Origin: Corallococcus sp. AB045
GTDB taxonomy: Bacteria; Myxococcota; Myxococcia; Myxococcales; Myxococcaceae
Direction of reading: 5' to 3'
Length of the DNA stretch: 48,830 nt
Assembly: GCF_003668895.1 (NCBI RefSeq)
Contig: NZ_RAWN01000061.1
Location: 1 to 48,830 of the forward strand
Shown here: one piece after another, positions 77 through 17,293 of the stretch
Layout of the letters: each line of letters begins with the position of its first letter
Numbering within the stretch: the first letter of the stretch is position 1
Translations under genes and position numbers: made by a program
The notes under the pieces: model-generated
Database searches by the model: none
The model's input: the letters and a program-made list of their open reading frames with translations, nothing else
Told to the model about the DNA's origin: nothing

Positions 77-188
77 GAAGTTCGGGACCTCCGAGCCATG
101 CCTCGCCGTGGTGGGCCGACGGCCACCGCGTCAGGGCGGGCTCCCGTGGCCGCGACGCAAGGCTGTTCCTCGTGGAGGTGCGGACCCC

Positions 189-3100
189 ATGAGCCGGCCC
201 TCCCAGCGACTGATCCAGCTCCTCCCCGGCCTCTACACGGCGCGGGACTCCACGCTCGCGGACCAGCCGCTCCTCAAGCTGCTCGCCGTGCTGGGCATGG
301 AACTGGACGCGTTCGCGAGCGCGGTGGACCAGCTCTGGGATGATCACTTCGTGGAGCGTGCGGGCCCGCAGGCGCTGCCGTTGCTCGCGGAGTTGATGGG
401 CGCACGGCTGATCACCGACGACCCTCGCGTGCAGCGCGGCGTGGTGGCTCGCGCGGTGGCGTGGCGCAGACGGAAGGGCACGCTCGCGTCGCTGGAGGAG
501 GTGCTCTCCGTCACCAGCCTCTGGGACGCGGAGGTCGACGAGTCCTTCCGTTCGCTGCTGGAGACCCAGGACCTCAATGACCTGCTGCCCTGGCGCGGTC
601 GCAGCGCGGTGATGTGGGATCCCATCGGCCTCGCGGATCCGCTCACCCGCCGCTCACCTGGCATCGAGCGTCCCCGCGACGGTGTCCCGGAGCGTGGCCC
701 CTTCATTGGCATCGCGCCGGGAGAGACGCTGGATCAGGCCTTGCGCCGGTTGGGGAGCGCGGATGCGGGCCGTGTCGCCGCGACGCCGCGCACGCTGGAC
801 CTGCTGGGCTGGGCACGTCCGGACGTCGCCCTCATCCGCACCGCGCGCCTGACGCCCGTGGAGTTGGAGGACGTCACCCCAGCCACCGTGCAAGCGCTGC
901 CCAACGGCTACCGGGGTTTCCGCGTGGATCCCCTGGACCGCGATGGTCCCCTGGTGTGGCTCAAGCCCCTGGAGCGCGCGGACCTCACCGGAGGCCTCAC
1001 CGCGCGCCATGAGCCCGCGCCTCCGTCGCTCGCCACGGGACGCACGGCGGCGATGCTGCTCACCCCCACCGCGCTGGCCGAGGACGCCGACGCCGCCGAA
1101 CGCGCGGATGCCATCACCGTCTCCGTCGACGGCATTCCGCTGGTGGGGCCGGAAGCCCTGCCGCTCCTGCGCGGACCGCTGCCCACCGCGCCCGTGGGGC
1201 CCGCGCCCACGCTGCGGTTCGCGGACCGGGGCAGGCCTTCGCCCGGAGACACCTGGCGACTGACGCTGCTCGCCGCGCGTGAGAACTCGGACACGGTGCT
1301 CCTGTCCACCGAGCTGGTGTCGGACGCCCTGAACACCGTCACCGTCACGCCGGAGGCGAACCAGCTCCTGGGCGGCACCACGGCGGCGCTGCTCGTCGAA
1401 CGCGTGAGCGGTGAGCCGCGCCTGCGCGATGTGGACGGTACGTGGCGCACCCTCGCCGTGGGCCTGCGCCAGGGGCCTCCTCGCAGCAACGCCGTCCGTG
1501 TGGACCTGGCCGGTGCGCCATGGGTCGCGCGCATCGAGCAACACCTCGCGGACGGCAGCCTGCGCCTTGCCCGCTTCGACGCGAGCGCCGACGGTGCGCC
1601 ATGGCAGGTGGTGGAGCTCAGCGGCGCGTTGCCTCCGGAGGGTCCCGGCATGTCCCTGGCCGCGGCTGGCGACTCGCTGTTGCTGGTGGCACCTGACGGT
1701 ACGGGGAAGCTGGGCGTGTGGTCGGTGACAGGCGTGGACACCGCGACTCCGACGGGGACGCGGCTGGACACCGCGAGCCCTCGGCAGCCCGCGGCGCGAC
1801 TGGCCCCCAGCCTGTGCGTGCGCGGCGGCCGGCTCTTCGTCTTCGGCGGTGACCTGGGTGGCGCGCCCACCGGAGACCTCTGGTCGCTGCCGGTCACGGG
1901 CGGACCGTGGCGTCCCCATGCGGTGCGCAACCGCCAGGAGCGCAAGGCCGCGACGCTGCTGAGCACGGCGCAAGGACTGATGCTCCTGGGCGGCGAGGCC
2001 GTGACGGGAGAACTGGCCGTGCCGGTGATGTCCTGCGACCCGGCCTCCGCGAGCCCTGTCTGGCGTTCCCTGGCCCCGCTGCCCATCACCGCGAACCTGC
2101 CCGGCACGCTCGTGGCCACCACCACCGCCGACGGCGTGGAGGCGCTCGTCTGGGCGGACACGACGCGTCCTCAATGGATGACGCTGAAGGCAGGCGAGGG
2201 TGCCTGGGTCGCGGGACTGCTGGAGCCCTCGGGCTCGAACCCGCCGGTTCCGGGTGAAGCGCTGTACGTCGATGGTCGCGTGCTCCTCGTGGATCCGGCG
2301 CCGCTGCCCGCGTCGGAGGTCGTCTTCTCACTGGGTGGGCGCGGCTACCTGGCGTTCCTGCCAGAGCTGGCCCTGCTCCCGGATGAGCTCCTGCGCTTCA
2401 ACGTCGCCAACGACGGCGCCGCGTTCATCGAGCCTCGCGAGGGCCAGCCGCTCCCGCTCGATTCCCGGCCCGGTGGCGCGTACCACTCGCGGGATGCCTC
2501 CGTCGCAGGTGGCGCGCGGCGCTACTCGGTGCCAGGACGGCTGCGGCGCCATCCGTTCCAGTTGCGCCAGCGAAGCCTGGGCCCGTGGACGACGCTCGCT
2601 CCGAGCATCGCCTCCGGCATCGTCGCGGTGGATCCGCGCCTGGGCCGCGTCGTGCTCCAGGACGACGCGCCCGTGGGCCGCGTCACCCTCTCCGCGCGGG
2701 TAGGGCGGGGCGCCTCATTGGGAGCGGGGCTGCTTCCGCCGGACCGCCGTCCGCCCGCGGCGTGGGCGGAGCCGGACTTCCCATTCATCGACCCACCGGA
2801 CCGTCCTGGCGACCGCTCCAGCACCGGCCTTCCTGTCACCGCGTGGATCTCCCCGGAGCGCGCGGGCGGAGTGCTGGCGGCCGGAGGCCAGGAGCGGCCC
2901 ATCGTCGCGACCATCGAGCAAGGTCTCGACTCCGGCGCGTCCGTGGTGCTGGCGACTGGAGGCCAGGCGCGACCCATCGGCTCGGTCGGCGCACAAGGTC
3001 TCGACTCCGGCGCGTCCGTGGTGCTGGCGACTGAAGGTCAGGTGCCGCCGGATATCGCGAACCTCGCAGAAGAGAGCCCATCCGGATCGCCGCCGATTCT

Positions 3101-3980
3101 GGGCCTCATCGGTTCGCCGCGTCTGGCTCCGGAGCGCCTGTCACAGGGGCTGGACTACGGGCTGTCCCTCTTCGCCGCGGACACGGGCGCGGTGCCCTGC
3201 ATCGGCGCGGACGAGCACGGCCTCTCGCTGGCGCTCTACCCGGGCTTCGGAGGCAGCGCGGCCACGCGTGTGTGGCTCGCGGGCCTGTGGCTCGCGGGAC
3301 GGCTGGACCTGGTGCTCGCTCGGGGACAAGCGGACCTGCGCTGGTGCAACCTGGGCGCGCCCGGACAGGTGGGACTGTGGATGCCCGGCGGTGGGCACCA
3401 GGACATCAGCGCGCGGCGCTCCCTGCCTCCCGCTGATGTGGAGCTGCGCCTCTACGGCTGCATGGTGGGCGCCATCGAGCTGCCGCCCTGGGTGCACCTC
3501 ATCGCCGCGGGCTGCACCTTCGACGCGGGGGACCGTGACGCCGTCGCCATCCGCGCGGCGGGCGCGAGCGTTCGGCTGCGGCACTGCACGGTGCTGGGCG
3601 CCACGGAGGCGGGCGTGCTGGAGGCGTCCTCCTGCGCCTTCGCGGGCGAGGTGCGCACGGACAGGCCGGACCTGGGCTGGCTGCGCTACAGCCTTCTCGC
3701 GCGCGGTGGACAGCCTCCGGTGTCGCACCAGTCGCGGGTGCACACCGTGTCCTTCCAGTCGAACCGCCAGACGGACCCGAGCTACCTCGTCCTGGGCGAC
3801 AACAACGGCCCCGAAGCGCTCCACGCCTCCGAGCGCGGCGGAGTCCCCGGTGCCCACGACGAGCGCTCCAACCACGAGCGCGAACTCCAGGCGCGCACCG
3901 ACGACAGCATGCCCATTGGCATCACGCCCTTCCACGCCGACCGCAGCCAGGACGACCTCGTCCGGATGAGCCGACCATGA
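189..3980 (+). CDS. Baseplate wedge-like protein (1263 aa). The N-terminal domain resembles phage P2 tail protein I (gpI family), fused to Kelch-type beta-propeller repeats and a long C-terminal region. Alternative upstream start at 108.
   Basis: ORF 108..3980. An internal ATG at 189 has GGAGGTG 8 nt upstream, so it is preferred. The N-terminus (LLPGLY...LWDD...ALPLLAELMG...RGVVARAVAWRRRKGTLASLEEVL) matches from memory the conserved pattern of P2 gpI (LLP...LLPWLAW...KRAVIRDA..HCHKGTIGAIRRVV). The middle has Kelch-like repeats (LFVFGGDLGGAPTGDLWSL, LMLLGGEAVTGEL). The stop TGA overlaps the start of the next gene (ATGA). Confidence 0.7.
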   Translation: MSRPSQRLIQLLPGLYTARDSTLADQPLLKLLAVLGMELDAFASAVDQLWDDHFVERAGPQALPLLAELMGARLITDDPRVQRGVVARAVAWRRRKGTLASLEEVLSVTSLWDAEVDESFRSLLETQDLNDLLPWRGRSAVMWDPIGLADPLTRRSPGIERPRDGVPERGPFIGIAPGETLDQALRRLGSADAGRVAATPRTLDLLGWARPDVALIRTARLTPVELEDVTPATVQALPNGYRGFRVDPLDRDGPLVWLKPLERADLTGGLTARHEPAPPSLATGRTAAMLLTPTALAEDADAAERADAITVSVDGIPLVGPEALPLLRGPLPTAPVGPAPTLRFADRGRPSPGDTWRLTLLAARENSDTVLLSTELVSDALNTVTVTPEANQLLGGTTAALLVERVSGEPRLRDVDGTWRTLAVGLRQGPPRSNAVRVDLAGAPWVARIEQHLADGSLRLARFDASADGAPWQVVELSGALPPEGPGMSLAAAGDSLLLVAPDGTGKLGVWSVTGVDTATPTGTRLDTASPRQPAARLAPSLCVRGGRLFVFGGDLGGAPTGDLWSLPVTGGPWRPHAVRNRQERKAATLLSTAQGLMLLGGEAVTGELAVPVMSCDPASASPVWRSLAPLPITANLPGTLVATTTADGVEALVWADTTRPQWMTLKAGEGAWVAGLLEPSGSNPPVPGEALYVDGRVLLVDPAPLPASEVVFSLGGRGYLAFLPELALLPDELLRFNVANDGAAFIEPREGQPLPLDSRPGGAYHSRDASVAGGARRYSVPGRLRRHPFQLRQRSLGPWTTLAPSIASGIVAVDPRLGRVVLQDDAPVGRVTLSARVGRGASLGAGLLPPDRRPPAAWAEPDFPFIDPPDRPGDRSSTGLPVTAWISPERAGGVLAAGGQERPIVATIEQGLDSGASVVLATGGQARPIGSVGAQGLDSGASVVLATEGQVPPDIANLAEESPSGSPPILGLIGSPRLAPERLSQGLDYGLSLFAADTGAVPCIGADEHGLSLALYPGFGGSAATRVWLAGLWLAGRLDLVLARGQADLRWCNLGAPGQVGLWMPGGGHQDISARRSLPPADVELRLYGCMVGAIELPPWVHLIAAGCTFDAGDRDAVAIRAAGASVRLRHCTVLGATEAGVLEASSCAFAGEVRTDRPDLGWLRYSLLARGGQPPVSHQSRVHTVSFQSNRQTDPSYLVLGDNNGPEALHASERGGVPGAHDERSNHERELQARTDDSMPIGITPFHADRSQDDLVRMSRP
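2919..3049 (+). repeat. In-frame tandem duplication inside the gpI-like gene: 2 copies with a 75-bp period, encoding QGLDSGASVVLATxGQ twice.
   Basis: caaggtctcgactccggcgcgtccgtggtgctggcgactg occurs at 2919 and again at 2994. The first 40 nt are identical and the similarity then decays. Confidence 0.8.
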
Positions 3981-6900
3981 CCGTGAAAGCGTACACCTCC
4001 AGGTCCCGCTTCGACGAAGCCCGGCGATTCTCCGGCGTCTATCAGCAGATGGGGCGCATGAGCCTCGACGCCGACTGGAACGAGGAGGTGCGGCTGCGCA
4101 CCGTGGACGCGCGCCGCCGCTCCGCCGATGTCGCCGAGGGCTCGCCTGATGACGGCTTCCGCATCGTCGACACGTACCTCGTGGACCCCATCCGCAACGT
4201 GCTCGGCTGGACAGGGCAGGGCCTGCCCGCGGACGACGAGCGCACCATCCCGCGCGAGCTGCGCCTGGACCGCTACGACACGGAGACGCTGCCCTTCGTG
4301 GTGCGCAGCCGGGGCCACGTCGCGCTGCGCCGCACGCTGCCCGCGCCGTTGGATCTCACGGCCGTGCCGCGCTCGGACGGCACCGCCTTCACCGCCTCCG
4401 CGCTCGTCATCAGCTTGCGCTTCGAACGGCCGCCCACCGACGATGAGTTCATCGACCTGCAAGTGGTCGTCGCGGACACGGAAGGGAACGAGACGGTCCT
4501 CTCCGCCGGTCTGGGCCAGCGACCCACGGGCTGGAACGACGTGCGCTTCCCCGTCGCCGCGTTCGCGAGCGTGGACCCGGCGAAGCTGAGCTCCTGGGGA
4601 GTGCTGGGCCTGCCGCCCGTGGCCCGCACGTGGGTGGCCGCGCTGCGCGTGGAGGACGCGGCGCTGGGCGCCGATATCATTATAAGAGGCGGTGACGGGA
4701 CGCTGCCGGGCGCGGGCCGCATGCTGCTCGACGGCGTGCGCGTCTTCCTGGAGCAGGACCTGCGCTACTCCGCGCAGCCGGACCTGCCAGAGGCGCCTCC
4801 GCTGGCGGCGCTGCCCACGGACGGCTCGCGGCACCACTTCTTCTTCCTCGACTGCTGGGAGCAGACCACCACCCAGTACGACGACGCGTTCCTGGAGGAG
4901 CCCGCGCTGGACGGCCAGGACACCACCGTACGCCTGCGGCTCGTCACCCAGGTGCGCGCGCTCCAGGGGCTGGCCGCAACCGACGCGGAAGACCTGCCCA
5001 CGCCCACCAGCGGCGCACGCCTCACCACCAACATCCCGAAGGGCGCGCTACCGGACCGCTTCCCACCGGAGCCGCTGGACCCCTGCCGCGACCGCTGCCT
5101 GTCCACGGAGAACGCCTCCACGGGCGAGGGCTACACGGGCTCCGACAACCTCCACTTCCGCGTGGAGTTCTTCCGGGGCGGCGCGCAGCCGGTGGTGCTG
5201 TGGTCGCGAGACAACGGCTCCATGGTGCTCCCGCTCACCGCAGCCGCGGCGGCGGACGCGATGACGCTCCAGGTCTCCCCCGCGAGCGCCGCGAAGCTGC
5301 GCGCGGGTGACCTCGTCGTCATCGAGGACAGCGTCACCCGACTCCAGCCGGAAGGCCCATCACTGCCAGTGCTGCGGAGGCTGCGAGGCGTCCAGGCGGA
5401 CACGGGCACGCTGGAGCTGGCGGACGCGAGCGCCGTGCTCACCACCGACCCCGTGCCGCTCCCCGTGGGAGGCACGCTGGGCCGGGCCTTCAGTCCGGAG
5501 CAGGGCGCGGTGGTGCGCCGGTGGGACGGCGGCGACCTGCTGGTGCCCGGCGTGCGCTACCGCTTCGACGACGGCATCACCCTGGCCTTCGCCAACACGG
5601 AAGGGCGCGCGACCGAATACTGGTCCTTCACCGTGCGAGTGCGCGCGGCGGACGGCGCGGCCCGGGGGGAAGTCGAGCAGCTCACGGACGCGCCCGTGCA
5701 CGGCCCGGTGCACCATTGCGTGCCACTGGCGCGCGTAACAGGCGGCGCGACGCGGAGCTTCGAGGACCTGCGCCCGCGCTACCTGCCGCTCGCCCAGGTG
5801 CGAGACAGATTGGTGGAGCTCTCCGAGCGTGTCATCGGCCCGGGTGTCTTCACGGTGGTGGTGGGCGACGGCGTGCGCAGCTTCGGCGACGTGGACCAGG
5901 ACCTGCTCGAAGGCATCACCGGCGACGAGGCGCTCCAGGCCGCGGTGGACAGCATGGGCGGGCAGGGCGGCTCCATCTTCGTGCGAGCCGGCCGCTACAA
6001 GTTGGAGCACCCGGTGCTGCTGCGCAACCTGTCCTCCGTGCACCTCCTGGGCGACGGCGAGGCCACCGAGCTGCGCACCCAGGGCTCCGGCGGAGCCTTC
6101 TTCGTGGACCGCTGCGGCCTGGAAGGCGACCTGCGCATCGAGGACTTCAAGCTGGTGGAGGCGCCCTTCGAGGACGTGGTGATTGGCGGCGGCCTCCAGC
6201 CCGTGGTGAAGGCCGTGAAGGCGAGCGTGGCCTTGACGAACGGCCAGCGCTTCGTGCCGCTGGCGGAGGTGGACGACGACCGGGTGCTGGAGGAGGACGA
6301 CGTGAAACACCCGTCCGCCGAAGCCGACTTCGTGGACGTGGTCGTCGACCGCATCAAGGCCATCGTCCCGGGCCAGGGCCGCGCGGCGGGCTCCGTGGTG
6401 GCCACGCTGGTGCAGTTGCGCAAGCTTCAACGCCAGCATCCAGGCCAGCCACTGGAGGACGTGCCGGAGGCGAAGCCGCTGCTCGACGCGCTGGCGGCGC
6501 TGCCGCACGGCGTGGTGACGCTGGCGGACTCCAGCGGCGTGACGCTGCGCCGCTGCCACATCCAGGCGAACCAGGCCGGCTCGGAGGCGACAGGCGTGCT
6601 GGTGACGGGCACCTGCGAGCGCATCGTCATCGACGAGAACCGCGTCGGCGCGGCGACAGGCATCGCGGTGGCGCCGTATGCCCCGTATCTCGCGGAGCGC
6701 TTCCTCGCGTCCTTCCCGCGCGCGGGCCTGTTCGTGGACGCGCTGGCCATCACCAACAACCGGCTTGAGCCGCTGGGAGACGCGACCACGGGCATCCACG
6801 TGGCGGACGGGCTCCTCGCGGGCGTGGAGGTGCGCGGCAACCGCATCCAGGGCTTCCTCGTGGGCATCCTGGTGCAGGACCTGGCGGAAGGGGGGCTCGC

Positions 6901-9900
6901 GGGGCCGGTGGACCGCGTGGTGGTGGCGGAGAATCAGATCCTCGGCTCCGCGGCCGTGGGCATCCAGGTCGCGGGCGACGGCGTGGACATCGTGGGCAAC
7001 GAGATCCGCAACGCCGTGTCGGACAGCCTGTTCCAGGTGGGCATCCAGCTGGCGGGCCGGGCGCTGCGCGTGCGCGAGTCGTGGATCTCCCTGCCGGCCG
7101 TGCCCGCCGCGTCCGTGCTGGGCGTGGTGGCCGGCATCGTCGTGGGCGACGGCCTGGATGACGGCGCGTCCAACGGCCGCCCCGCCTCGGACGTGGAGGT
7201 GGTGGACAACCGCATCGAGGGAGACGGCGAGTCCACACCGGGCTTTGGCATCCTGCTGGGCGGTCCGCAGCCGGTGTTCGACGTGCGCATCCGAGGCAAC
7301 GTGGTGCGCGCGCTGGGGGACTCGGCCGTGCGCACCTGGGGCACGGGCGGCGCGGTGGGGCGCCTGCGCGTGGAGGACAACCGCTTCGAACAGGTGGCGC
7401 TCGCGGACGTGCCGTCGCAGGAGGACAACACGCTGGCGCTGTCCCGCCTGGACCCGGGCCTGGAGGCAGTGCTGAGCGCGGACGCGAAGGCCCGTCCCCG
7501 CCCACTCGTGGAAGCGCTCCTCGCCAACGCCACGACCCGCGTGCGCGCCCCCCTGGACGCTGCGCTGCGCTGGCTGGAGAGGCTGACGCTCCGGGGCGCG
7601 GTGGTGCTCTCGGGCGTGGACGAGGCGCAGGTGCGCGGCAACCGGCTGCTCCAGGTGGGGCGGACGGAGGCCTACGGCGCGCCCGGGCTCCCGGACGCGG
7701 AGGTGCGCGCGGCGGGCATCGCGGTGGTGTCCGGCTCCGGCATCACCGTGGAGGGCAACGAGGTGGACGGCGTGCACGCGCCGGTGACGACGACGCAGCC
7801 GCCGCCGGTGCCAGGGCCCGTGAAGCTGCCGCCCATCACCGTGGTGCTCCAGCAACTCAGTGTCACGAGCACCACCGTCCGCCCGGAGCGCGCGGACGTG
7901 CACGGCGCCGTGGTGGGCATGTACGGCACCCTCTTGCAGTACACGGGCGCGAACGTGGACGGGCGCCAGAAGATCGGCCGGGGCCTGTACGGCCCGCTCG
8001 ACACCCTGGTGGTGGAGCTGGAGGACCTGGGGACCGTGCCCGACTCCGTCCTCAATGCGCTGGTGACGGACGTGGCGGATCTGCGTACCGCCCAGGGCTT
8101 CAACGATCACACCCAGACCTCGCACGCGGTGCGCTCGTCGCTGGCGCGCGCCTCCAGCTTCACCGCCCCGGAGCCTGTGTCCCAGGAGGCGTGGGACATG
8201 GTGGCGCAGTTCGACCTGGCCACCGTGTCCGGCAAGGACGCCGTGGCGAGCACCGCGGACCGCATCAAGGGCGCCTTCGACTCGCTGGTGCAGGGGCTGC
8301 CCTCCGACACGCAGGATTTCCTCCTCAAGGCCCTGGCCCGGGTGCAGGGCGGGCCGGGTGACCTGGCCGCGATCGTCATGCTGGCGGGGGCGTTGAGCCA
8401 GGTGGCTCTGCTGCGCGAGGCGCAGGCGCAGCGCGCGCGGCAGCCCGTCATCGGCCAGGCGGTGGGCCCCAAGAAGACCATCATCGGCACCTTCGCCCAG
8501 GCCGCGTTGCAACAGCTGCCGCTCCAGCCGGGCACCCGGGGCGCGACGGCCAACACGGACGTGCTCGTGCAGCTGCGCACGTCCAAGGACGCCCTGACGG
8601 ATCAACTCCAGGAGCTCCACCCCGCGCTGGCCTCGCAGGTGGAGGCGGACTACCGCGACGTGGAGCGCACGGGCGGCCAGCTGCAGCCGGTGGTGGACCG
8701 CATGCGCGCCACGCTCCAGCAGGTGCTGGACTTCACCACCGGCGTCCTGCCCTCGTCGGACGTCACGCCGGAGGACGGCGCGCGCGTCGCGGCGCAGGGG
8801 CTCACCGCCACCATCGGCCTGTACGCCACGAATCTGGACCGGCAGGCGGCGGGCCTCGTCACCGAGTCCGACGACACGGTGGAGAAGCAGCTGCGCGCCT
8901 TCGGCACCGCGGTGGGACAGCTGGGCGAGCTGGTGAGCGGCGACGCGGAGCTGTCCGCGCTCTCGTTGCAGGCGCACCAGGCGGTGATCAACGCCATCGC
9001 CCAGCCGCAGAATCGGTTGGAGCAGGTGTCCATCGCCCGGGGACTGCTGGACCGCATCCGGGTGCAGACGCTGGACGTGCTCCCGGTGCCCACGCCCCTG
9101 CCGCCCGTGCCGGTGCAGGCGGAGCCGCTGGAGCGCTGGGTCTCCGCCCTGGGCGCGTTGGTGCTGGCGGTGCGCGGCATGGCGCCGGGGCCGGTGCTCA
9201 GCGGCTCGTTGCAGCTCTACCTCTCCCAGTACGACCGCGTGCTGGACATCGCGGGCGTCCAGGGGAAGCTCCGCACGCTGGCGCTCCAGCGCGTGAACGA
9301 CGCCATCACCGCGCTCACCAGCGGCAACGGCGACGTGCCCGCGCGTCAGGCCCTGCACCTGCTGGTGGACGAGCCCGCCACCACCGCCGCGGAGGCCGTC
9401 GCCAGATCCAGCGCGGTGACGGCCGAACTGGACGCCGCCGCGGTCCTGCTGCGCGCCGTGGAGCAGGCCCTGGACCCCGCCGAGGACGACGCGTCGCGAG
9501 TCGCGAGGCTCCAGGAGTACCTGCGCCAGCGCGCCGACAAGGTCTCCGCGTCGCTCGTCGCCGTCGTCACCGGCATGCAGGCGCTGGACGCCATCCTGGA
9601 CATGCTGCGCAAGTCGCTGGAGCAGCTGGCGCGCGGCGAGGCGCCGGACCCCGGAGACCTGGTGGACCCCGTCTTCGACACCTTCCCGTCGCCCGCGGAC
9701 GGCCTCTTCGTGTCCGGCGTGCAGGGCCGCGTGCGGCTGGCGGACAACACCGTGCGCGACACCGCCACCGGCATCACCGCCCTGGGCGCGGCGGGCCACC
9801 TGCTGACGGAGGCACCGACGGATCCTGGCTCGCTGCTGGACGTGGATGGCAACCGGCTGGAGGGCTGCGCGGTGGCGGGCCTGCGGCTCTTGCCGGACCT

Positions 9901-13360: not shown

Positions 13361-13555
13361 ATGAAGGAGCCCGGCTGGAAGCCACTGGAAGCTTCGGTGC
13401 TGCGCGAGCGGCTGGAAGAGGTGAAGGCCTTGCTGCTCCAGGCGGCGGCGGTGGGCGTGGCCCAGGACGCCGAGCGGCTGGAGAAGCTGATGGAGCTGGA
13501 ACAACGCACCCGGGAGGACGCGCGTGGCCGAGTTCAACGACGCCGCTATCGCTGA
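13361..13555 (+). CDS. Small charged helical/coiled-coil protein (64 aa).
   Basis: ATG 13361 lies 5 nt after the spike stop. It overlaps the next gene by 32 nt in another frame. The composition is coiled-coil-like (LRERLEEVKALLLQ...ERLEKLMELEQRTRE). Confidence 0.4.
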   Translation: MKEPGWKPLEASVLRERLEEVKALLLQAAAVGVAQDAERLEKLMELEQRTREDARGRVQRRRYR

Positions 13556-15134
13556 GCTCCACGGCGCGCTGGAGGTCTGCTGCGAGGAGCTGGCGAAGGC
13601 GCTGGAGGATGCGGAAGGCACGGACACCACCGGCGCTGACGCCGGGGCCGGGCCTGCGTGGCGGCCGCTGCTGATCGGCGTGCCGCCGGGGCTGGAGCAG
13701 CTGGTGGGCATCGTCAAGCCGCCGCTGCAGATCATCATCGCGGTGCTCCAGTTCGTGCAGGCGCTGCTCCAGGCGCTGGCGGCCATCCTCCTGGGGCTGC
13801 CGGATCCGTTCCGGGCGCTCATCCTCGCGGCCTACGAACTGCTCAAGGACATCATCAACGACCTGCTCAACGCGGGTGCGTACCTCTACGCGGACGCGCC
13901 GGGCATCAGTCCCACGGAGACGAACCTGGCGGAGACGGGCTTCATCCCGAACATCCCCAAGGACTTCAAGGCGGGCTTCGCGCTGGAGCGCCCGCCGGTG
14001 ACGCCGGATGGCTTCGCGCGCTGGGCGGGGCGGTTCGTCGCGTCCTTCGATGATCCGGGGGACGACTCGCGCCCGACGGTGACGGATGGCGCGCCGGTGC
14101 AGGCGGTGTTCATCGTGATGGCGGCGCCGTCGCTGGATGCGCTCCGGCAGGCGCTGTACCTGCTGGGCAAGCTGCTCAACATCAGCGCGTTCAAGAAGGC
14201 GTTCGAGAAGTACCCCAAGGGCGCGTTGGATCCGCGCCGCAGCCGGGCGCGTGGCCGGCCGGTGAAGCCGGATTGGAAGTCCGCGCGCATGCGCGACCTG
14301 TTCCCGGACCTGGAGAAGCTGCTCATCCTCCCGGAGGCGCTCAGGGCGCTGCTCCTGTCGGTGGACAACCTGGCGACGCTCCTGCGGAGCCTCGCCGCCG
14401 CGATGCAGGACAAGGTGCAGGTGTTGATGAAGCTGGCGCAGGCGGTGCAAGCCATCATCGACCTGCTGAACGCGCTCAAGTCCGCGGGCATGTACGCGCT
14501 GCCGGTGTCCACGACGGGCGGCGTGGCGGGGTTGAAGCAGGCCTTCCTCACTGCGACGAACCGGCCGCCGGGCGGCTACGTGGGAGGCATCTGCCTGCTG
14601 GCGGCGGGGCCCAACCTGGCGAAGGCCGCGATGCTCTGGGAGCTGCTGGGCCTGTCCGCCGCGATGGAGCTGGCGTCGGGAGACCTCACGCTCCAGGACG
14701 TGAAGAAGGCCCTGGAGGAGAGCCAGGCGGCGCAGGTGCTGGAGGCGAACACGGACGAGGTGAAGGACGCCTGGGGCAACCTGAAGACGACGGCCCAGAA
14801 GCAGGCGGACAAGTTCGTGAACGCGGTGGAGAAGGCGCCTGAGAGGTTCGTGAAGGCGGTGGGGCGCACGCCAGATGAACTGAAGGCCGCCGCCGAGCGA
14901 GGCCGCTCCACGCTGGTGGAGGTGCTGGACCAGTCGAAGGAGCACGTGGAGGAACAGAAGGAGATCCTGGAGGGCATGCTGTCCACGAAGCACTCCCAGC
15001 GTCGGGGAGGGCGTTCGCTGGCGATCGGCTTCGGAGGTCCCGGCGCGTCCGAGCGCCCGCCGAGTCCGCAGCCCCCCGCGGCTGACACGTCCACGCCGAC
15101 ACCGACCCCGCCGAAGAAGGGAAGCGGCCCGTGA
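13524..15134 (+). CDS. Hypothetical predominantly alpha-helical protein (536 aa). A tape-measure/assembly-like role is speculative.
   Basis: GTG start 13524 with GGGAGGA 8 nt upstream. It is Leu/Ala-rich and helical with a C-terminal Pro/Thr-rich tail. The stop overlaps the next start (GTGA). Confidence 0.6.
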   Translation: MAEFNDAAIAELHGALEVCCEELAKALEDAEGTDTTGADAGAGPAWRPLLIGVPPGLEQLVGIVKPPLQIIIAVLQFVQALLQALAAILLGLPDPFRALILAAYELLKDIINDLLNAGAYLYADAPGISPTETNLAETGFIPNIPKDFKAGFALERPPVTPDGFARWAGRFVASFDDPGDDSRPTVTDGAPVQAVFIVMAAPSLDALRQALYLLGKLLNISAFKKAFEKYPKGALDPRRSRARGRPVKPDWKSARMRDLFPDLEKLLILPEALRALLLSVDNLATLLRSLAAAMQDKVQVLMKLAQAVQAIIDLLNALKSAGMYALPVSTTGGVAGLKQAFLTATNRPPGGYVGGICLLAAGPNLAKAAMLWELLGLSAAMELASGDLTLQDVKKALEESQAAQVLEANTDEVKDAWGNLKTTAQKQADKFVNAVEKAPERFVKAVGRTPDELKAAAERGRSTLVEVLDQSKEHVEEQKEILEGMLSTKHSQRRGGRSLAIGFGGPGASERPPSPQPPAADTSTPTPTPPKKGSGP

Positions 15135-17293
15135 GCGCGGTGACACGCCTGAGCATGGAGCTGGACGGCTGGCAGGCGGCCTGGAAGCAGCTGGAGGCGT
15201 TCCTGGACCGCATGGACGGGGTGGCGGAGCAGGACGCGCCGCACGTCCAGACCGTGTGCGCGCTCCTGCCCGTGTTCAATGTCATCGAACGGGCCCGCCG
15301 ACGCGCGGTGGGCATCGCGTTAGCGCCAGCCCTGGCCGCCGCGCCTCGGGGTGAAGGACTGCCGACGGTGTCCGCCGGTTCGCTCGTGGGGAGTGAGAGC
15401 CGGCTGCCGGGAGTGGAGGAGCTGGAGTTCGCGGTGGGCACCATCGGAGCGGATGGAGACGGAAAGCTCACGGGGTCGGCGTTGCTCGCGGGCACGGTGA
15501 CGCTGTTCGCGTTCCGCGACGAGAAGCACGGCGGCGAAGTGGCGGTGCGCGTGCCCACGTATGACTTCGGGCCCCTGTCGGAGAGCGGCAGCGTGGAGGA
15601 CGCCATCGACGCGGGGCTCTTCACCACGGGCCAGCGGAAGGACGCGGCGGAGAGCGGAGTCGCGGAGCTGGGGACCTGGACGGGCCTGCGCACCACGAGG
15701 CGTGCGGAGCTGAAGACGACGTCGGAGACGGTGTCCCTGAGCAGCGTGCTGGATGGGTTGAGCGTCTCGTCGGCGTCCAGCGCGTTCGGCCCCGTGGCGT
15801 CAGGCGCCGCGACGCGCCAGGGGGAGTGCCTGGCGGACCGGAACGTGCTGCTCCAGGCGAAGGCCACGTTGGAGGAGCAGGGTGCGGCCCCGGAGCTGAC
15901 GGATGCGCTCCAGCGCGCGGCGGATTCTCTACAGGCGTCGGCAACGGACTACGGAGCGGTGGCCACGGCGCTCCAGCCGCCACGCACGGTGATTGCGTCC
16001 GTGCCGGGGCTGGCGTCGTTGAAGACCACGCTGAGGCGGGCGGATTCACCCGGCATCCCCGGGCAGCTGTCCAACGAGCTGACGACGTTGGACATCGAGG
16101 CGGGGAAGGGAATGGACGAAGCGGTGGCGTCGCGGCTGGCGTATCCGGACGGTTCGTTGCGGATGCTCCGGACGCTGGAGTGGTCGCTGCGCTTCCACTG
16201 GGTGTTCCGTCAGCGATGGTTCGACGCACGCAACCGGGCCGCGCTGGCACCGCTGCTGAAGCTCGTGCTCAAGCCGTTCTGCGACAGCCTGACGCGGCTG
16301 CTCGCGGGACAGTCCACGGGAATCCCGCTGGTGGGAGCGGTGGCCCTGGTGAAGGACACGCTCACGCAAGCGACGGCGCTGTCAGTGACGCCCACGGTGG
16401 ACCTGGGACAGGTGCAGCCGGGCCACGTGGCGCACGTGGGAGGGGACCGGCCCACGCTGGCGCTCGTGCTGGGCTGGGAGGTGAAAGGGGCCGAGAAGCG
16501 TCTGCGAATCGCACCGCTGAATGTGTCCATCGCGACGGACGCGAAGCTGCCGGGTGTCGCCGGACTGGTGAGGAGTGGCTCGCCCGTGGACGGGAGCGCG
16601 GTGTCGGTGTCGTCACAGGAGCTGATGGACGGGCACGCGGCGGCAGGGCCGCAAGCGGACGGCGTGGTGCAGGAGATCATCGCCCTGGGCGCGAAGCTGA
16701 ACCTGATCCTGGGGCAAGGCGGAGGCGCGCTGGGATTGGTGCCTCCGGCGGTGGCCGCGCCGTATGCAGGCCAGACGTTCCAGTTGCTGCCGCCGGTGGA
16801 GGTGGGAGCGACACGACTGTTCCTGGATGGCATCCCGCTGACGAGTACGTCTGGAACGAGCAAGCCGGTGCAGGTGGCGAGGCCGGGGGAACTGCTGCTC
16901 GTGCGCGGAGCGGACGACGAAGGCACCTGGTGGCAGGGCGTGGCCACCGTGGACACGGTGGACGTGCGCACAGGCGCGGCGGCCCGAGCGGACGACGAGG
17001 TAACGGCGACGCCCACGCCACTGTGCTGCGAGGACGACGAGGAGGTCGTGGTCATCACGCTGCGCGACCTGCAGCTGCCCAAGGCGCTGGTGCGCGACGT
17101 AACGCTGCGGCGCGACTTCAAGGGCTTCGGAGGCCCGAGCCTCGCCACGGGAGTGATGCTCCCCATCGAGCTGGACTCAGGCACGGCGAACCTCACGGTG
17201 CAGGACGGCGGCGTGACGAAGACGGTGCTGAGGGACCCGGAGTTGAGGGCCGCGACCACGGTCCTCAAGTCCTGGCTGGGAGTGCCGACATGA
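15131..17293 (+). CDS. Hypothetical protein (720 aa), co-operonic with the baseplate genes.
   Basis: GTG 15131 overlaps the previous stop. The composition is protein-like and the antisense frames are junk. The stop overlaps the next start (ATGA at 17290-17293). Confidence 0.6.
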   Translation: MSAVTRLSMELDGWQAAWKQLEAFLDRMDGVAEQDAPHVQTVCALLPVFNVIERARRRAVGIALAPALAAAPRGEGLPTVSAGSLVGSESRLPGVEELEFAVGTIGADGDGKLTGSALLAGTVTLFAFRDEKHGGEVAVRVPTYDFGPLSESGSVEDAIDAGLFTTGQRKDAAESGVAELGTWTGLRTTRRAELKTTSETVSLSSVLDGLSVSSASSAFGPVASGAATRQGECLADRNVLLQAKATLEEQGAAPELTDALQRAADSLQASATDYGAVATALQPPRTVIASVPGLASLKTTLRRADSPGIPGQLSNELTTLDIEAGKGMDEAVASRLAYPDGSLRMLRTLEWSLRFHWVFRQRWFDARNRAALAPLLKLVLKPFCDSLTRLLAGQSTGIPLVGAVALVKDTLTQATALSVTPTVDLGQVQPGHVAHVGGDRPTLALVLGWEVKGAEKRLRIAPLNVSIATDAKLPGVAGLVRSGSPVDGSAVSVSSQELMDGHAAAGPQADGVVQEIIALGAKLNLILGQGGGALGLVPPAVAAPYAGQTFQLLPPVEVGATRLFLDGIPLTSTSGTSKPVQVARPGELLLVRGADDEGTWWQGVATVDTVDVRTGAAARADDEVTATPTPLCCEDDEEVVVITLRDLQLPKALVRDVTLRRDFKGFGGPSLATGVMLPIELDSGTANLTVQDGGVTKTVLRDPELRAATTVLKSWLGVPT

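Follow-up and report, generated by a model that had tools for sequence, protein, structure and literature searches.

A Kelch-type beta-propeller inserted into a putative gpI-type fibre adaptor of a contractile injection system of Corallococcus

The stretch of DNA analysed here, referred to as the window, comprises the 48,830 nucleotides of contig NZ_RAWN01000061.1 of the soil-living myxobacterium Corallococcus sp. AB045 (assembly GCF_003668895.1), with a G+C content of 72%. Its first gene encodes a protein of 1263 amino acids (aa) that begins with a domain of the family of the phage P2 tail protein gpI and lies among the genes of a contractile injection system (CIS); it will be called the adaptor. 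The coordinates of its modules and partner genes are given in Table 1. The gene model proposed by the first-pass annotation, a protein of this length read from position 189, is well founded: the open reading frame (ORF) follows a Shine-Dalgarno-like site, its third-position G+C bias (GC3 of 0.86 in frame) is typical of a real gene, and homologues in three phyla have in common a conserved N-terminus, M-x-RPS-x-RL, that matches the ATG at position 189, which makes this start sound and excludes the far-downstream start that had been allowed for. Positions 1–188 are part of an intergenic spacer of approximately 490 bp in a co-directional operon, according to the alignment to a 99%-identical contig (L001), and on this ground a minus-strand ATG at approximately position 45 was rejected as the start of a divergent gene.

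The adaptor is 99% identical to the hypothetical protein D7X30_26050 of Corallococcus sp. AB011P, and it belongs to a family of approximately 75 full-length clusters (1,180–1,300 aa, 37–99% identity over 100% of the length) from Myxococcota (Corallococcus, Sorangium, Minicystis, Kofleriaceae), Gemmataceae and Actinobacteria (Micromonospora, Cellulomonas). Identity within Corallococcus is 82–99%, and the invariant residues of the family alignment extend from P13 to D1251.

Table 1. Coordinates in the window of the adaptor gene, its modules and its partner genes.
Feature	Positions	Strand	Basis
Shine-Dalgarno-like GGAGGTG, just 5' of ATG 189	174–180	+	direct reading of the sequence
Adaptor coding sequence, ATG 189, stop 3978–3980, 1263 aa	189–3980	+	ORF list
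Residues 1–120, helical gpI/Tri2/Mu gp48-type head (Tail_P2_I)	189–548	+	Pfam, TIGR02242, AlphaFold2 helices
Residues 121–350, conserved connector, common to the ~700-aa class	549–1238	+	short-class profile, conservation, pLDDT
Residues 351–790, inserted module, Kelch-type beta-propeller	1239–2558	+	gap in short-class profile, AlphaFold2, Foldseek, family profile
Residues 791–910, small conserved beta domain, LRQRSLGPW ... VAVDPRLGR motifs	2559–2918	+	short-class homology resumes at 791
In-frame 75-bp (25-codon) tandem repeat, 2.3 copies, in disordered variable linker	2871–3042	+	Tandem Repeats Finder
Residues 970–1230, right-handed parallel beta-helix (pectin-lyase fold)	3096–3878	+	fold match
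Residues 1231–1263, conserved C-terminal helices	3879–3977	+	AlphaFold2 secondary structure
Partner tail fibre, 2537 aa	3977–11590	+	N-terminal DUF6519 (eBAP5 attachment domain) E=4e-9, Beta_helix E=1e-11 (Pfam); PHROG tail spike
Spike protein, gpV OB domain and gp5 C-terminal beta-helix	12169–13356	+	Pfam Phage_base_V E=9e-24 and Gp5_trimer_C
AAA+ ATPase, weak Pvc16_N-like C-terminus	30888–33329	-	Pfam AAA E=1e-24; Pvc16_N E=8.5e-4, under cutoff

When a profile of the first 360 residues of the adaptor was searched against 1.84 billion cluster representatives, 2,823 proteins were recovered at E≤1e-3, 1,967 at E≤1e-10 and 36 at E≤1e-30. Approximately 30 of the 36 best matches are proteins of about 1,200–1,300 aa that cover all 365 positions, and the remainder are fragments; the next tier, among the best 150 matches listed, consists mostly of proteins of 650–900 aa that have only the first ~150 residues in common with the adaptor. 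Since most of the listed relatives that bear the head are of this size, a large gpI-headed protein is the rule in this group and not the exception. Sixty of the shorter proteins (the short class) were aligned and scanned with Pfam: 31 match Tail_P2_I, 17 match Phage_Mu_Gp48, one matches TssG (E=5.6e-4), and none of the 60 matches any Kelch model.

Compared as families (hhalign), the long and the short forms align with a probability of 100% and E=7e-62 over 638 columns (11–1220 of the long form, 3–664 of the 673 of the short one). A hidden Markov model (HMM) of the short class, searched with hmmsearch, matches the adaptor in two collinear pieces, nodes 2–285 on residues 1–350 (E=1.5e-47) and nodes 290–672 on residues 791–1247 (E=5e-33), while the 440 residues from 351 to 790 fall between nodes 285 and 290. 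Given these two pieces on either side of it, the Kelch module is, by alignment, an insertion of approximately 440 aa, placed exactly where two modules meet directly in the common ~700-aa form. The first-pass annotation had described a propeller grafted onto a wedge protein and followed by a tail, an architecture that has to be redrawn, with the propeller between two conserved modules; it had also called the protein unusual, which holds for the Kelch insertion and not for the large size of a gpI-headed protein. The insertion was seen only in the ~30 top-scoring clusters of about 1,200–1,300 aa (Myxococcota, Gemmataceae, Actinobacteria), and that the short form is by far the more abundant and diverse suggests that the module was gained by the long form and not lost by the short class. 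The adaptor is thus a rare, enlarged form of a very common fibre adaptor, a variation on a known theme and not a new kind of system, and no description of a Kelch insertion in such a baseplate adaptor was found in the searchable literature.

The propeller itself is recognized weakly in the single sequence and clearly in the family. With the single sequence, the Pfam Kelch models remain under their curated cutoffs (Kelch_KLHDC2_KLHL20_DRC7, 26.6 bits against 50, E=4e-6; Kelch_6, 14.7 against 25.3), and the Kelch matches in a search of the PDB are all insignificant. A profile of 43 family sequences, however, matches solved Kelch proteins in the PDB with E values from 5e-15 to 1e-7, including the Kelch region of the dynein heavy chain (5e-15), LZTR1 (2e-13) and KLHDC10 (3e-11), and the GG...W signature of Kelch repeats is invariant in the family at G553, G554 and W565 and at G601, G602 and W625. 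The adaptor was modelled with AlphaFold2 in two parts (residues 1–780 and 741–1263). In the first of them, with a mean predicted local distance difference test score (pLDDT) of 79, residues 340–750 form an all-beta domain of 30 strands with pLDDT >90 that has the shape of a propeller, and Foldseek pairs it with whole six-bladed Kelch domains (KLHDC2, KLHL12, Keap1, LZTR1) with E~1e-10, probability 1.0 and template modelling (TM) scores of 0.5–0.66 per target. The Kelch repeats read by the first-pass annotation, and the fold that it had proposed to model, are therefore borne out by the family profile and by the predicted structure, and with Pfam taken into account for the head, described below, both the propeller and the gpI-like head are real. 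Six clear blades are found at approximately residues 431–730, and the flanking beta segments (351–430 and 731–790) may, as modelled, form a stalk or a seventh blade. The resemblance to KLHDC2, KLHL12, Keap1 and LZTR1 comprises the fold and the signature, with only 10–16% sequence identity; unlike the propellers of these proteins, which are attached to BTB/BACK domains or free-standing, that of the adaptor lies within a wedge protein. CBB_552 of a jumbo phage shows that a virion may include a Kelch protein (PMC5259590).

The head was placed by the first-pass annotation in the first ~150 residues, and the domain search agrees: Tail_P2_I (PF09684) matches residues 26–118 (profile positions 6–96 of 139) with E=4e-7 and 30.4 bits, above the curated cutoff of 20.6, and TIGR02242 matches with E=1e-4, under its cutoff. 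Helices are modelled at residues 4–110, and residues 110–220 are poorly predicted. A motif of the RRRKGT type aligns with IHCHKGT of P2 gpI and HQRKGT of the R-pyocin protein Tri2. TssG (PF06996) gives zero matches to the adaptor at E≤1, a profile of the head alone has no match in the PDB, not even at E≤10, and in the Foldseek search of the model of residues 1–780 the matches are dominated by Kelch proteins, which swamp any comparison of the head fold with Tri2, TssG or gp7. Between the head and the propeller lies a conserved connector of approximately 230 aa, overlooked in the earlier domain picture. It contains highly conserved stretches with pLDDT <50 (residues 118–142, 148–159, 189–213 and 264–282), and the first three of them, conserved and yet poorly predicted, are as expected for segments that fold on a partner.

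For the part that follows the propeller, the first-pass annotation had given a Gly/Ala-rich region of ~500 aa. A low-complexity tail of this kind is rejected on composition and fold, and in its place there are a small beta domain and a beta-helix with the pectin-lyase fold, in which conserved cysteines recur in successive repeat motifs (C1053, C1091, C1109, C1133, C1149); the C-terminal helices contain the invariant residues E1232, R1236, P1242 and D1251. The linker that carries the 25-codon repeat has pLDDT <50, and the extra copies are missing from 96–98% of the homologues. Their number differs among Corallococcus strains, with orthologues of 1213, 1238 and 1263 aa having one, two and three copies, respectively, and irregular lengths of 1256 and 1282 aa also occur in the genus.

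The gene order around the adaptor is the same in Corallococcus (contig L001), Sorangium, Micromonospora, Cellulomonas and Gemmataceae: genes for CIS_tube, LysM/Tail_X, a gpD-like hub, gp25 and two J-like proteins precede the adaptor, and a fibre of 2,450–2,705 aa, two small ORFs, a gpV/gp5 spike, a small ORF and an ORF of ~530 aa follow it. The position of the adaptor after gp25 and Baseplate_J and before the fibre, shared by L001 and four distant loci, mirrors the order W-J-I-H of the annotated P2 record, in which W is gp25. In the chromosome of C. exercitus (L009) the sheath gene and two gp19-type tube genes are located further upstream, in a region that corresponds to DNA outside the window, and with the sheath and tube of this orthologous locus the gene content is that of a complete CIS. 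A prophage origin is disfavoured, with no capsid or terminase among the window ORFs scanned, a locus conserved as a chromosomal operon across phyla and an AAA+ ATPase nearby, and a CIS is the preferred assignment of these genes. The AAA+ ATPase is a candidate for the assembly ATPase of the system.

The partner gene encodes the tail fibre: its start codon and the adaptor's stop codon overlap (ATGA), the DUF6519 match in the ORF that begins at 3977 exceeds its cutoff, and right-handed beta-helix repeats are present. It is collinear with the fibres of Micromonospora and Sorangium (41–42% identity), and between phyla the adaptor and the fibre diverge equally (41–43%), which, together with the collinearity of both proteins, points to inheritance as a set without the swapping of modules. 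On the other side of the adaptor, two different J-like genes precede it in every locus examined, the first (Baseplate_J-like) encoding 1,227–1,524 aa and the second 815–833 aa. In L001 the two different Baseplate_J-like genes lie at 3248–7012 and 7012–9510 (1255 and 833 aa), just upstream of the window. Two distinct genes suggest that the wedge is heteromeric, J1-J2-I, where (J)2-I would be the usual arrangement.

A 1,700-aa protein (P0198) carries a gpI-like head at residues 1027–1166, and one member of the short-class alignment, probably the same protein, has a Baseplate_J match; if that match is its own, P0198 would be a natural J-I fusion and would support a physical association of J and I. 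In the short-class locus of Geodermatophilus every one of the corresponding components is smaller, with 696 aa for the adaptor, 793 and 911 aa for the J-like proteins and 1,322 aa for the fibre, and the baseplate periphery therefore seems to scale as a unit.

The spike gene has the same position in all related loci. Its location 3' of the fibre gene is an unusual order among CIS loci, and the hub (Phage_GPD-like, 395 aa, L001 1690–2874) and the spike (Phage_base_V and gp5 C-terminal, 395 aa) are separate genes. Beside the spike are conserved ORFs with no Pfam match, at 13524–15134 and 15131–17293 on the forward strand (536 and 720 aa) and others within 17540–22714 on the reverse strand; these and an FGE-sulfatase/HEAT-repeat protein (19879–21393) are candidates for cargo or assembly factors. 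With the structural genes of the CIS on one side of it and the AAA+ ATPase on the other, a protein of 2,713 aa that has three annexin repeats (22715–30856, reverse strand, E=1e-21) could likewise be cargo or an accessory protein. Further on, a bacterial homologue, 758 aa in length, of the major vault protein of eukaryotes is encoded at 41214–43490 (forward strand; MVP_shoulder E=5e-45, with Vault, Vault_2, Vault_3 and Vault_4 repeats), and near the end of the window there is a protein with LysM and T6SS_VgrG3-like_C domains (45208–46887, forward strand, E=9e-53), likely a peptidoglycan-targeting enzyme. At 19491–19819 a 110-bp unit occurs in three tandem copies (97% matches), each with a 27-nt palindrome, AAACCTGTCCGACAGTCGGACAGGTTT, whose core CTGTCSGACAG has 4 occurrences in the window where 0.03 would be expected, one of them at 66–76. 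Variants of the palindrome are also present in the spacer of ~490 bp that lies upstream of the adaptor gene (L001 9630–9990); Micromonospora and Sorangium lack this spacer and have overlapping genes instead. The palindrome may be an element similar to repetitive extragenic palindromes (REP) or miniature inverted-repeat transposable elements (MITE), or an operator.

Several known systems help to place the adaptor. T4 gp7 and Afp12/Pvc12 (Cis12) are large wedge proteins of the core bundle that reach the periphery of the baseplate, where the fibres attach. A 2026 catalogue of the receptor-binding domains of extracellular contractile injection systems (eCIS), published in Nature Communications, identifies DUF6519 as eBAP5, the domain through which fibres, the 'mega pectin lyase' type among them, are attached to the baseplate, and reports that systems with eBAP3 or eBAP5 have a gene bearing Tail_P2_I as the adaptor, in place of the Afp12 homologue (PMC12923769). 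According to this source, the attachment of the fibre is predicted by AlphaFold-Multimer to be mediated by loops, in a manner that resembles TssG and the attachment of R-pyocin fibres, the similarity between Tail_P2_I proteins and TssG is pointed out, and the word Kelch has no occurrence in the main text (PMC12923769). In the literature, the Tail_P2_I and Afp12 types are treated as two alternative baseplate designs, and Tail_P2_I had earlier been listed as a 'shell' domain of eCIS (PMC8213781). The Corallococcus locus fits this description: the protein has a Tail_P2_I head, it lies directly 5' of a DUF6519 fibre of the 'mega pectin lyase' type, and its locus is one of sheath, tube, gp25 and Baseplate_J (PMC12923769). 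It differs from the eBAP3/eBAP5 adaptors in being approximately 1.8 times the usual size, owing to the insertion of the propeller.

The unnamed short class of ~650–900 aa shares with the adaptor a homologous head and connector, followed by the C-terminal beta domain and beta-helix, and differs in having no counterpart of residues 351–790, so that its modules are contiguous, and, in Geodermatophilus, in its smaller J-like proteins and fibre. Its member from Geodermatophilus obscurus (SAMN05660350_00443, P0078, 696 aa) has the same operon position, its gene being preceded by two J-like genes and followed by that of a DUF6519 fibre, and the alignment of this protein to the adaptor covers only the N-terminal ~230 residues. 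P2 gpI, Tri2 of R2-pyocin (PA0619, PDB 6u5b) and Mu gp48 have a head of the same Pfam family but are head only, of ~176 aa, whereas the adaptor has 1263 aa and four further modules; in place of one J-like gene, the Corallococcus locus also has two different ones. For TssG, a type VI secretion system (T6SS) protein, the proposed role is the same, with one copy per wedge bridging two TssF or J-like subunits, a role that here is assigned by analogy; TssG has neither a propeller nor a beta-helix, and the adaptor shows no match to it. Whether it carries the propeller or not, no adaptor of the Tail_P2_I class is known to us with a solved structure.

Taken together, these observations are best accommodated, with moderate confidence, by a gpI/Tri2-type wedge subunit that serves as the fibre adaptor of a complete CIS and in which the propeller is an extra docking platform at the periphery. 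By analogy with gpJ/gpI of P2 and with the (Tri1)2-Tri2 triplex of R-pyocin, the head would bundle with the two J-like proteins into each of the six wedges, and the rest of the protein would project to the periphery of the baseplate and hold the fibre by its N-terminal DUF6519 domain. The half with the beta-helix, found throughout the class, would belong to the periphery where DUF6519 docks, and the propeller would be a platform specific to this lineage that makes a conserved protein-protein contact, most likely with the unusually large fibre or with the enlarged J-like proteins. Probably, the propeller does not determine the specificity for the target.

Some observations weigh against this interpretation. 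Without the Pfam profile the similarity of the head to its presumed relatives is insignificant, both for P2 gpI by direct hhalign (E=0.11) and for R-pyocin Tri2 (E=0.12), a sub-threshold match that is the sole near-threshold relative of the short class in the PDB. Profile searches of the PDB sequences detected neither T4 gp7 and Afp12/Pvc12 nor any other solved CIS or phage baseplate chain (Afp, PVC, AlgoCIS, tCIS, T4). The contacts of the head with the J-like proteins and of the adaptor with the fibre are proposed by analogy only, and in the published adaptor-fibre models the fibre binds loops of the Tail_P2_I protein, with no propeller mentioned in the main text (PMC12923769). To this is added the pattern of conservation on the propeller: the opposite face scores 0.50 against 0.58 for the B-C/D-A loop face, the usual ligand face of Kelch domains, and the difference is insignificant (p=0.10, with strand boundaries taken from a DSSP string without coordinates).

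The same ligand face bears on the most serious competing explanation, according to which the propeller is a receptor-binding, lectin-like module, a second target sensor on each wedge that would help to trigger firing on contact with prey or host. Beta-propellers do act as lectins in some eCIS fibres, as the catalogue describes (PMC12923769), the propeller is an add-on in a part expected to face outward, and it is somewhat less conserved (0.56) than the head (0.69, the most conserved part of the protein) and the beta-helix (0.64). The canonical ligand face, however, is not variable: its score is practically that of the strands (0.56), and the most conserved loops of the propeller are located on it, in blades 6–7 (0.72–0.78). 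The propeller is never swapped, the ~75 homologue clusters from three phyla being collinear from end to end (100% of the length); identity within Corallococcus is 82–99%, whereas modules for specificity are usually the fastest to diversify; and a dedicated fibre of 2,537 aa is already present. Receptor binding by the propeller is thus a doubtful, although arguable, alternative, while the equal divergence of adaptor and fibre, the conserved ligand face and the joint scaling of the baseplate periphery favour docking over target specificity. The first-pass annotation had considered receptor binding and fibre docking side by side; docking fits the neighbouring DUF6519 gene, the ATGA overlap and the published adaptors, and receptor binding finds no positive support in a ligand face as conserved as the strands.

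Another proposal, which we regard as speculative and rather unlikely, is that of a lineage, found in predatory myxobacteria, Gemmataceae and some actinomycetes, with a distinct "giant baseplate" in which six Kelch propellers, one on each wedge, form an outer ring and act as a second sensor, either binding a conserved ligand on the target surface or gating the movement of the 2,500-aa fibres, and so couple contact to firing. If this were true, the propeller ring would be a trigger element to which no solved baseplate, whether of a phage, a pyocin, an eCIS or a T6SS, has an equivalent.

On account of its pectin-lyase-fold beta-helix, the adaptor might also be seen chiefly as an enzyme, a polysaccharide depolymerase like those of phage tailspikes but borne by the baseplate, in which the Kelch domain would help to hold the substrate. 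This is improbable, given that identity to the proteins compared in its favour is only 5–15%, that the Pfam and NCBIfam scans matched no lyase or hydrolase family, that the fold also serves widely as a purely structural element, and that the module is conserved, like a structural part of the baseplate, across as many as ~2,000 clusters of its class. Finally, that the long ORF is an artefact of annotation or assembly, such as a gene fusion or a wrong start, is suggested by the abundance of spurious long ORFs at 72% GC and by the opening of the longest ORF at GTG 108, and is effectively refuted, as a matter of sequence, by the same full-length architecture in ~75 clusters from independent genomes and metagenomes, by invariant residues that span nearly the whole protein, by the N-terminus conserved from ATG 189 and by the in-frame GC3.

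The periphery of the baseplate is where a CIS decides on binding and firing, and it is the part that is re-engineered for retargeting. In an adaptor found in ~2,800 clusters, the insertion described here marks a clean, naturally tolerated site, located between the head and connector and the beta-helix tail, that takes a whole propeller of 440 residues, and it defines a small lineage across phyla whose adaptor, J-like proteins and fibre are jointly enlarged. As a docking platform, the propeller would provide a handle to which new binding modules could be attached; as a sensor, it would add a new trigger element. For the genus itself, the orthologue of the adaptor in C. coralloides, COCOR_03274, belongs to a locus distinct from the phage-like protein translocation structure (PLTS) catalogued in 2014, COCOR_02848–02867, so that Corallococcus has at least two contractile-system loci, and since Corallococcus is a predatory myxobacterium, it may be speculated that the CIS is relevant to predation.

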